This document shows, in pieces, positions 53,880-56,222 of a stretch of 63,174 bases of DNA. Under the pieces are notes generated by a model, which did not search any database, was not told the DNA's origin, and saw nothing but the letters and a program-made list of their open reading frames with translations. Where the stretch lies: the IMG/VR virus record IMGVR_UViG_3300045988_076310, one strand, 5' to 3'. The DNA is from a virus. A program made the translations under genes and the position numbers. Positions within the stretch are counted from its first letter, which is position 1. The number at the start of each line of letters is the position of its first letter.

Positions 53880-54106
53880 GCAATACCTCTCTTTTTCAAT
53901 TCTTCTTTATATTCCTGTTCCTCAGTAATCATTTTAAAGCTTAGGATAAGGAAAGCCAAGCAATAGGTCCAAACAGTGATAGCAAAGCTATAATCAAGCT
54001 CAAAGCTTCCTACCATCATTGTTACAATGTGGAAATACCACAAAAACAGCTTTTTAAAGTTAATTTTACGTTTACGCTTCTTCATTTTCAACTCCTTCTT
54101 TCTCAA
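53876..54106 (-). CDS. Small membrane protein
   Basis: Basic N-terminus followed by two hydrophobic segments. Confidence 0.5.
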   Translation of the reverse strand: MRKKELKMKKRKRKINFKKLFLWYFHIVTMMVGSFELDYSFAITVWTYCLAFLILSFKMITEEQEYKEELKKRGIA

Positions 54107-54449
54107 ATAAGAAATTACATTCTCTTATTTCTACAAAATTATCATGATTGTTTCCATTCAACCACCAACAGCGGTTTAATAGTTGTATTTTTAGCTCTTC
54201 ATCTTCAATATCTCTAAAAATTATAAAGTCATTATGCTGTTCCATTACTCTAGTAATTAAAATAGCCTGTGTTTTATTGTAAGGATAGTTTAACATATAG
54301 AGTACATCACCCTTTTTGTATTCTCTATCATCACACAAAAAATCTTTAATGACTTTAACAAAAGCATGAGTATGATGCTTCTTTCCATAGGTTTTAAAGA
54401 TATCCCTGAGCTGTTTCTTTGAGTAGATTTTCAATAAATTTTCTTTCAT
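54072..54449 (-). CDS. Tandem paralog family member A
   Basis: Shares CWWLNGN and NFLFEKE with the W(W/N)I ... FLY signature of the five upstream genes. Confidence 0.6.
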   Translation of the reverse strand: MKENLLKIYSKKQLRDIFKTYGKKHHTHAFVKVIKDFLCDDREYKKGDVLYMLNYPYNKTQAILITRVMEQHNDFIIFRDIEDEELKIQLLNRCWWLNGNNHDNFVEIRECNFLFEKEGVENEEA

Positions 54450-54451
54450 TC

Positions 54452-54817
54452 TTACTCCTTATAAAGAAAGTTATAGATAGCTGATAAGTTCAATTCCTTA
54501 AGATTATCATTAAACTTTCTATAGATATTCCAAGCCTTGATACCTTTTCTTTCAGCTTCTATTGATAGAAAATCTCCGAGATGACCTGCGTTACCCCATC
54601 TACCCGTTAGTTCATATAGTACAGGATAACCATCAATATTTGTGTAACCATAAATACAGCCTTTCCCAATAGTTATACCATCTTGAGTAAATGTTTTAGT
54701 ACAGATACATACTTTTAGAAATTTTAAGTAATCTTCACGACTATATCTTACATAAGGGCTGTCTTTAGCTTTTATAGCTTTCAGATTTTCACTGAATAGG
54801 TTTAAATCTGTTTTCAT
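54452..54817 (-). CDS. Tandem paralog family member B
   Basis: KAIKAKDSPY, LKVCIC, YELTGRWGNAGH, GIKAWNI, NFLYKE. ATG 54817 follows GGAGG and overlaps the upstream TGA. Confidence 0.65.
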   Translation of the reverse strand: MKTDLNLFSENLKAIKAKDSPYVRYSREDYLKFLKVCICTKTFTQDGITIGKGCIYGYTNIDGYPVLYELTGRWGNAGHLGDFLSIEAERKGIKAWNIYRKFNDNLKELNLSAIYNFLYKE

Positions 54818-55179
54818 TCGTCCCTCCAATATAGAAAAGTAGAAAGGTGGCTTAGATTAATTTCTTTAAAGTCTTTACCATTACGTGATGGGATATTCCA
54901 TCCCTTAAGACCTTCTGTAGTCGCTCTATGAGTAAACAAACCCCCTTCATGACCTTTATTTATCCAAAGACCTGTTATTTCATACACAACATAGCCAACA
55001 GACTTTTCTCTTAAAAGGTATATACCTTTTTCTATTAGTAAATCATCATGAATGAAAGGTTCTATACATACACAGACTTTTAAACCATCCACAAGGTTTC
55101 TATAATCATTTATTATATAATCACTATCCTTATTTTTAATAGCTTTAAAATTTTTAATGAATTTATAAATATTAGTCAA
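54814..55179 (-). CDS. Tandem paralog family member C
   Basis: KAIKNKDSDY, LKVCVC, YEITGLWINKGH, GLKGWNI, TFLYWRDE. Clear paralog of member B. Confidence 0.65.
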   Translation of the reverse strand: MTNIYKFIKNFKAIKNKDSDYIINDYRNLVDGLKVCVCIEPFIHDDLLIEKGIYLLREKSVGYVVYEITGLWINKGHEGGLFTHRATTEGLKGWNIPSRNGKDFKEINLSHLSTFLYWRDE

Positions 55180-55525
55180 CTTTATTACCTCCTTTATATA
55201 AAAAGTTTAAACTTTTATGATAATCCTTAATACCCTTTATGTTGTTAAAGTAATCTAACCTTATATTCCAACATGTAAAACCTTCATCAAAGGCTTCATC
55301 AGAAATATGTTCATCATGACCATCCATGGTATCTTCTAGATTAACAATAGCGACTATAGTATTACTTGATACAGGACTCACAAAAGGTTTACCTACTAAA
55401 TAAGTACCAGGCAATATATCTTTAAAGTCATAGACAAACTCTTTTGTAACTGTAACTATTTTGTCAATCTCAAAGTTAGGGTCAAGTTTCTTGAATAGCC
55501 TCAGTCTTTTTAGTGCTTCCATCAT
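55172..55525 (-). CDS. Tandem paralog family member D
   Basis: GFTCWNI and LNFLYKGG. Confidence 0.6.
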   Translation of the reverse strand: MMEALKRLRLFKKLDPNFEIDKIVTVTKEFVYDFKDILPGTYLVGKPFVSPVSSNTIVAIVNLEDTMDGHDEHISDEAFDEGFTCWNIRLDYFNNIKGIKDYHKSLNFLYKGGNKVD

Positions 55526-55876
55526 TTACTCCTTAATTTTATAATACAGAAAAGAGTTTATAGGCTTTAGAAATCTTTCCATAAATTTTAGGTCAGATGT
55601 ACTTATCCACCAATTAGAAAATCTTGATATAGAAGAGTATGTGGTCAAAGCGTTTATATTTCTTGTTAATCCATTAGGGTCAAGGGTTATTATTATGCTA
55701 TGCATTCCCCACTTATCCTCTAAATAGTTCCTTGCTAATAAATAATAGTTAGGTGCAAAACGCCAACCATTAATCTCTAGTGAGGTACTAAGTAACACAA
55801 GTTTAGCGTTTTTATATCTTGGCTCTAGCTTCTTCAAAATCCTTTCCCTTTCTTTAGCTTCTAGATAGTTCATCAT
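55526..55876 (-). CDS. Tandem paralog family member E
   Basis: AKLVLL, INGWRFAPNYYL, IITLDPNG, FSNWWISTSDL, SFLYYK. Confidence 0.65.
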   Translation of the reverse strand: MMNYLEAKERERILKKLEPRYKNAKLVLLSTSLEINGWRFAPNYYLLARNYLEDKWGMHSIIITLDPNGLTRNINALTTYSSISRFSNWWISTSDLKFMERFLKPINSFLYYKIKE

Positions 55877-56222
55877 TCCCCTCCTTAGTATAAAGAATAG
55901 GTACTAGGGGCTTAAGTGATTGCCTCATCTTCTGTAAATCTTCTGTGTCAATCCACCAATTAGTGAAACCTAATCTATCTAACTTAAGGGATAAAGCATT
56001 AGTATTTTTTGTAGGTTCTGTAGGGTCAAGAGTGATTATTAGGTGAAAAACCTCCCCTTCATAGTCAACCTCAGCACATTCAATCACTAGATAATAATTA
56101 GGTTTAAAGGTCCACCTATTTATAAATGCTTCTTGACCAAGCAAGACAAGTTCTGCTGTTTGCCATCTACCCGACTCATCAAACACCTTTTTCCTTTTCA
56201 GGGCTTCTTTTAAGGTCAGCAT
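55854..56222 (-). CDS. Tandem paralog family member F
   Basis: AELVLL, INRWTFKPNYYL, IITLDPTE, FTNWWIDTEDL, PILYTK. Clear paralog of member E. Confidence 0.65.
   Translation of the reverse strand: MLTLKEALKRKKVFDESGRWQTAELVLLGQEAFINRWTFKPNYYLVIECAEVDYEGEVFHLIITLDPTEPTKNTNALSLKLDRLGFTNWWIDTEDLQKMRQSLKPLVPILYTKEGNDELSRS

Follow-up and report, generated by a model that had tools for sequence, protein, structure and literature searches.

Early accessory modules of virulent Firmicute phages include the SPO1 host-takeover module and the Tre gene sets in the terminal repeats of Staphylococcus Kayvirus; host-takeover modules of many small early proteins are established in both SPO1 and T4. Poxvirus K3L is known as a genomic accordion. 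The T4 gene tifA, an accordion that counters toxIN, undergoes recombination-driven tandem amplification (Srikant, Guegler & Laub 2022, PMC9391042). We analysed an array of six small genes that can be set beside both kinds of system. The array occupies positions 54072-56222, on the minus strand, of the 63,174-nucleotide (nt) viral DNA IMGVR_UViG_3300045988_076310, a record of IMG/VR (this whole stretch is the window). Its six consecutive open reading frames (ORFs) have products of 116-125 amino acids (aa) in the ORF listing, and we name them g1 to g6 (A to F in the original prediction for this DNA). The six genes are diverged copies of one family.

Homology of the six proteins

Two pairs stand out in BLASTP comparisons (E-values relative to the six-sequence database): g2 with g3 (40% identity, E 8e-26) and g5 with g6 (41% identity, E 2e-24). 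The g4 protein matches g5 (E 1.5e-5), g2 (E 0.002) and g3 (E 0.007). The only link that BLASTP returns between g1 and g4 has an E-value of 0.55. Identities between paralogs in the window range from 13 to 41%.

Profile comparisons extend these links. We gathered 190 database hits and 15 related loci, and the resulting homologues fall into 12 clusters and four subfamilies: S56 (g5 and g6), S4 (g4), S23 (g2 and g3) and S1 (g1). The subfamily profiles, enlarged with orthologues from related phages, were compared using hhalign. S56 matches S4 over 108 columns (probability 96.8%, E 2.6e-10), and S4 matches S23 over 104 columns (probability 96.5%, E 8.8e-10). The S1 profile gives collinear matches to S23 (probability 38.6%, E 3.2e-4, 89 columns) and to S4 (probability 14.4%, E 1.9e-3, 93 columns). 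As controls we ran 80 comparisons, in two rounds, with ten families of small genes that neighbour the arrays at those loci; the best E-value among them was 0.011, for an alignment spanning just 12 columns. One S1 member, L014, also matches g2-type proteins directly (E 6e-4 to 2e-3). Because its profile matches are collinear and exceed those of the controls, and because its predicted secondary-structure elements come in the same order, g1 very probably belongs to the family.

Conservation across the family, as seen in a 50-sequence alignment, is limited to hydrophobic and aromatic core residues. Two residues do not vary at all, namely the central Tyr and, within the G-(F/I)-x-x-W-(W/N)-I motif, the Trp; in the C-terminal FLY motif, conservation of the Leu and of the Tyr is at least 90%. 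Only these four residues (Y, W, L and Y) show no or almost no variation. The same alignment contains no polar residue conserved family-wide, which argues against an enzyme.

The original prediction had described six adjoining genes for proteins of 116-125 aa, which the ORF coordinates, the overlaps and short gaps between genes and the ribosome-binding sites confirm. Its proposal that they are paralogs diverged after repeated duplication holds in both the BLASTP and the control-calibrated profile comparisons; the formal alignment and hidden Markov model comparison likewise places similarity among all six above the controls. It had further singled out B/C and E/F as obvious pairs and A and D as more distant members, in keeping with the identities of 40-41% within pairs and the profile-level links for D and A. 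The central and C-terminal motifs that it had noted are those conserved in the 50-sequence alignment.

The best 'control' match (hhalign E 0.0045, 55 collinear columns) came from a gene for a 107-aa protein, which lies upstream of the array at a distance of about 700 nt. Its YYV, vYHvnIkL and F-x-W segments align opposite YYL, FHLIITL and the W motif. This gene may be a very distant seventh relative, for which the evidence is insufficient.

Turnover and distribution of the array

All 15 arrays that we examined lie at the same locus of related phages, where 4 to 7 intact family genes stand between conserved flanking genes. The subfamily order S56-S4-S23-S1 is kept in all 15, and 14 of them begin with a gene of S56 type, which is either intact or makes up the 5' portion of a hybrid. 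The exception is the divergent 60.4-kb phage L020, which has S4-S23-S23-S1 without S56. Since this order is conserved, the founding duplications are therefore old. Gene number varies around it: relatives have one to three S23-type genes at the g3 position, and g5 is lost, or fused with g6, in several. Among eight phages with flanks that are 92-100% identical, the array DNA that follows the first gene measures between 1182 and 2489 nt.

We mapped three hybrid genes with clean DNA breakpoints, and two of the three crossovers lie in DNA coding for conserved motifs. In the g6/g5 hybrid of L017 the crossover falls within the shared AATTGGTGGATA, which codes for N-W-W-I, and in the g6/g4b hybrid of L005 it falls within GGGTTCA, which codes for G-F. 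The third hybrid, a 138-aa g6/g4 product in L006, arose by an out-of-register crossover with little homology. Further hybrids or internally deleted forms occur among the database representatives (P0124, P0129, P0130 and P0143), and two S4 genes are fused into one of 227 aa in L009. In each intergenic gap that we examined within the arrays there is a gene remnant, which a sister phage carries as an intact copy at 93-100% identity.

Alleles are also exchanged at g1, for which the clade has no fewer than three allele types. Through the region, identity between the window and its nearest relative (G001/L004) is 92-99% except across g1. Over 54038-54428 identity falls to 50-76% between flanks of 97-98%, which indicates a g1 allele replacement between the two phages. 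Taken together, these patterns describe a birth-and-death family in which recombination between related phages keeps changing the number of copies.

The genes are nonetheless maintained. We calculated pairwise Nei-Gojobori ratios of nonsynonymous to synonymous substitution rates (dN/dS) for the ten array subfamilies that could be scored and for four flanking genes. Nine of the ten subfamilies give values of 0.16-0.51 (g6, 0.16) and the tenth, represented by a single pair, gives 0.81; the flanking genes give 0.05-0.19. Because these ratios are below 1, the array genes are real and constrained, yet they are under purifying selection more relaxed than that of their neighbours.

The family is narrowly distributed. 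A profile search of 1.84 billion cluster representatives returned only 32 clusters at E <=0.001, and 30 of these are near subfamilies already present in the same phage clade. The two exceptions are P0144 and P0149. We treated P0144, a repeat protein of 830 aa that scored E 6e-5 in this search, as spurious. P0149 is a borderline 95-aa match (E 9.5e-4 library-wide) from a digester-metagenome contig (L018 3750-4366, JGI 3300009653) with a different gene context. It has no N-terminal helix, adjoins a gene for a 110-aa protein and lies near DUF1848 and Macro genes; this protein could be an outlying root of the family. Searching for related loci with g4 alone yielded a single IMG/VR locus. Within the clade the family is well represented, with orthologues in dozens of independent assemblies, and at least 89 of the 120 database homologues listed are S56-type (g6-type). 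Some array contigs are about twice the usual 60-63 kb (L017, from ENA, 120,900 bp; P0009, 126,565 bp); rather than larger elements, these probably represent the same phage genome assembled as a concatemer or in duplicate.

Predicted fold and genomic setting

We modelled two distant members with AlphaFold2. The g4 model, built from the 50-sequence family alignment, has a predicted local distance difference test score (pLDDT) of 84.5 and a predicted template modelling score (pTM) of 0.76. The g1 model, built from the 11 sequences of its own subfamily, has a pLDDT of 83.4 and a pTM of 0.78. Both models contain, in order, an N-terminal helix (an element that the original prediction had also named), five strands, a GH loop (QHN in g1), a helix, the W-motif strand, another helix and a further short strand; the element order matches through the W-motif strand and the helix that follows it. 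The two models differ in the FLY tail, which forms a helix in g4 but is unstructured in g1. With g1 and g4 aligned in the hhalign register, their DSSP states agree at 69 of 93 positions, against 32-48 at shifted registers. All six proteins are thus predicted to share one fold, in which an N-terminal helix precedes an SH3-like five-stranded small beta-barrel and a C-terminal alpha/beta extension that carries the W and FLY motifs.

This predicted barrel is the point of likeness to SH3 domains, bL19 and CAP-Gly domains. Foldseek aligns the g1 model with SH3 domains at a target-normalised template modelling (TM) score of 0.6-0.7, a root-mean-square deviation of about 3 Å and a probability of up to 1.0, with E-values of 0.02-0.5 and a query-normalised TM score of 0.35-0.4. 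The latter is low because the N-terminal helix and the C-terminal extension have no counterpart. The g4 model has weak matches to bL19 and CAP-Gly barrels in the PDB fold search. Foldseek searches of the PDB with both models and of BFVD with the g4 model returned nothing at E <=0.001, and none of the 50 family members matches a Pfam family of the SH3 clan. We read the SH3 likeness as a resemblance between predicted folds and not as family membership.

Sequence searches likewise agree with the original prediction, which could assign the proteins to no known domain. The six proteins have no significant match in Pfam (significance being the gathering score), PHROGs or PADLOC, and Pfam and PHROGs searches with the 50 family members one by one gave no significant match either. 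The highest Pfam score, 17.9 bits for Bromo_TP_like, comes from g1 only and stays below the cut-off of 21; the best PHROG E-values are 0.025-0.078, and the best E-value in a PDB sequence-profile search is 0.56. By these searches the family is a previously uncatalogued orphan.

The coordinates of the array, its boundary genes and other features of the window are collected in the table.

Table. Features of the array region and related features elsewhere in the window.
Feature	Coordinates	Strand	Description
g1 (A)	54072-54449	-	125 aa; subfamily S1; most distant member, acidic C-terminal tail
g2 (B)	54452-54829	-	125 aa as listed, from TTG; subfamily S23
g3 (C)	54814-55179	-	121 aa; TTG start; subfamily S23
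g4 (D)	55172-55525	-	117 aa; subfamily S4; sequence hub between both obvious pairs
g5 (E)	55526-55876	-	116 aa; subfamily S56; 23-nt overlap with the end of g6
g6 (F)	55854-56222	-	122 aa; subfamily S56; first in array; ribosome-binding site GGGGAGG
Downstream boundary gene	53876-54106	-	69-76 aa; hydrophobic product; outside the family
Upstream boundary gene	56224-56553	-	109 aa; one hydrophobic N-terminal segment; outside the family
Possible distant relative	57156-57479	-	107 aa
Promoter-like site	58289-58261	-	TTGACA-17-TATCAT with upstream TG; matches consensus at 11/12
Endolysin	25171-27423	+	750 aa; Amidase_2 and C-terminal ZoocinA target-recognition domain

The array genes are tightly packed: neighbours overlap by 8-23 nt or are separated by 0-2 nt, and every one of the six starts has a GGAG-type ribosome-binding site. 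The real start of g2 is most likely the ATG at 54817 (codon 5), giving a protein of 121 aa, because GGAGGG precedes this ATG and 122-aa orthologues begin with MKTDL. Read from there, g2 abuts the stop codon of g3 with zero overlap.

The array is bracketed by two genes that the clade retains, in contrast to the variable array that they enclose. The upstream gene is 79-88% identical across the compared loci and encodes 106-119 aa in relatives; the downstream gene encodes 69-84 aa across loci, with 87-99% identity. Both probably encode membrane proteins, as judged from their strongly hydrophobic segments, and hhalign comparisons of the two (controls C3, upstream, and C4, downstream) with the family found no similarity.

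The array lies in the leftward arm of the genome, upstream of a conserved 116-aa gene, a 494-aa gene, a peptidase gene and replication genes; the replication genes downstream of the array encode the 494-aa protein, a primase-helicase and a DNA polymerase. About 2 kb upstream of the array is the strongest leftward sigma-70-like site, identified by consensus match only, which we presume to be the early promoter of the operon. We found no minus-strand terminator-like sites between this site and the array. Early expression of the array is plausible given the promoter-like site upstream and the terminator-free stretch that follows it, and the location in an early arm, as originally predicted, fits such an operon.

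At about 63 kb, the window looks like an entire phage genome, with genes for a large terminase, a tail protein, an endolysin, a DNA polymerase A and a primase-helicase and with one tRNA-Cys. Megablast of the array region against GenBank phages gave zero matches. GenBank has no close phage: among cultivated phages, the nearest are the P087-like phages of Lactococcus, with a terminase identity of just 25%. The best tblastn matches of the endolysin against phages are Streptococcus prophage lysins, which suggests that the host is probably Streptococcus; a genome-contig scan with the endolysin for host inference found no match. The clade as a whole consists of siphovirus-like metagenomic phages of about 60-63 kb that probably infect Streptococcus.

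Candidate roles and comparison with known systems

With moderate confidence, we favour a reading in which the array encodes a clade-specific birth-and-death family of small soluble cytoplasmic proteins that act early, as non-enzymatic binders of host factors. The leftward operon would yield the proteins early in infection, ahead of the replication genes, and each paralog would be aimed at a separate host factor or variant. Host-defence components would be the most likely targets, since turnover in gene content is not favoured by conserved housekeeping targets; otherwise the proteins may act on other targets of host takeover. Recombination within the array would tune the repertoire to the hosts that a lineage meets. 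We infer an arms race with host targets or defences from the position of the array, the dynamics of the family and the lack of conserved residues of a catalytic type.

Several observations weigh against this reading. First, the arrays of the window and its nearest relative are near-identical save for g1, so turnover is not uniformly fast, and some of the 'pseudogenes' could be errors of metagenome assembly or sequencing. Second, no subfamily reaches a dN/dS of 1, and gene-wide positive selection is therefore not seen. Third, the membership of g1 draws on modest E-values and on a predicted, not solved, structure, and early timing is read from gene order and consensus promoter matches only. Finally, the PDB and BFVD searches revealed no similarity to any characterised anti-defence protein. 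Characterised inhibitors (anti-CRISPRs, DNA mimics of the Ocr/ArdA type and proteins of the Tad/Gad/Acb type) are absent among the 50 PDB fold matches listed for each of the g4 and g1 models, and from the BFVD fold search with the g4 model and the PDB profile search; no dedicated anti-defence library of hidden Markov models was searched.

A more specific proposal, which we consider unlikely, is that the family forms a modular counter-defence class on an SH3-like scaffold, with one Streptococcus defence per paralog. Crossovers at the NWWI and GF motifs would then swap N-terminal and C-terminal halves to create new specificities, and the array would amount to a combinatorial binder library.

The proteins might instead be host-takeover factors unrelated to defence, which redirect RNA polymerase, the replisome, division or metabolism through paralog-specific targets. 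The early position, the predicted non-enzymatic small binder fold and the confinement of the family to one phage clade would all suit such factors, and the takeover modules of SPO1 and T4 provide precedents. Conserved housekeeping targets predict a stable gene content, unlike the variation observed here, in which gene number ranges from 4 to 7 and genes are frequently lost or pseudogenised between near-identical flanks. We regard this alternative as doubtful.

Superinfection exclusion, or another form of interference with co-infecting phages or satellites, is a rather improbable function. Variable accessory content fits such conflict equally well, and the two small hydrophobic, probably membrane, proteins that flank the array are in keeping with it. 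The six array proteins themselves, however, are hydrophilic, with grand average of hydropathy values of -0.29 to -0.69 and without hydrophobic segments, and nothing ties them to satellites.

We consider a role in the phage's own DNA metabolism very improbable. Here the proteins would be SH3-like nucleic-acid-binding accessories or replisome adaptors that work with the adjacent replication module or with a repeat-rich, origin-like region. SH3-like barrels include many nucleic-acid binders, the array lies directly upstream of the replication genes, and two of the proteins are basic (g5, pI 9.7; g2, pI 8.9). The isoelectric points of the six range from 5.2 to 9.7, however, with three proteins acidic (5.2-6.2), and no positively charged residue is conserved family-wide. 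Core replication accessories would, moreover, not vary in number or decay among close relatives.

Finally, we reject the reading that the ORFs are spurious or non-functional, with a likeness that stems from composition or repetitive DNA: the array region is AT-rich (its GC content of 0.31 is the lowest of any 2-kb bin in the window) and matches no known family, but the dN/dS values, the confident models, profile matches far beyond the same-region controls, the strong ribosome-binding sites and the presence in many assemblies all speak against it.

If the binder or counter-defence reading is true, the array would offer six or more small inhibitors that are related yet distinct and share one compact scaffold, and the natural hybrids would show which half of the protein determines specificity. 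In oral streptococci, the family would then aid the search for new defence systems or host targets; it would also aid the study of how accessory repertoires of phages evolve. As it stands, the locus is a well-documented case, from natural phage populations, of an orphan family that evolves by birth and death and in which crossovers map to conserved motifs.

Like the genomic accordions represented by T4 tifA and poxvirus K3L, the array consists of tandem copies of accessory small-protein genes that are gained and lost by recombination between short homologies, and its copy number varies among close relatives. The range of 4 to 7 genes and the clean hybrid breakpoints display this trait directly. 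The copies in the accordions are recent, near-identical and dosage-acting, whereas no recent near-identical dosage copies are seen here: the array paralogs are far apart in sequence, and their order is conserved even in L020. Paralogs that are old, ordered and individually conserved suggest divergent specificities rather than dosage. The counter-defence activity of TifA is proven, whereas that of the array is hypothesised only.

The likeness to the SPO1 and Kayvirus modules is one of organisation. All are lineage-specific clusters of small, promoter-proximal early genes of unknown fold, which include some paralogous sets. We found no sequence or structural relationship to these modules, and PHROGs, which covers those phages, returned zero matches. 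The array differs from them in that its members all belong to one family and that hybridisation among them is documented. The family is thus a new orphan with a very narrow distribution; its behaviour is of a known kind and does not amount to a new principle.

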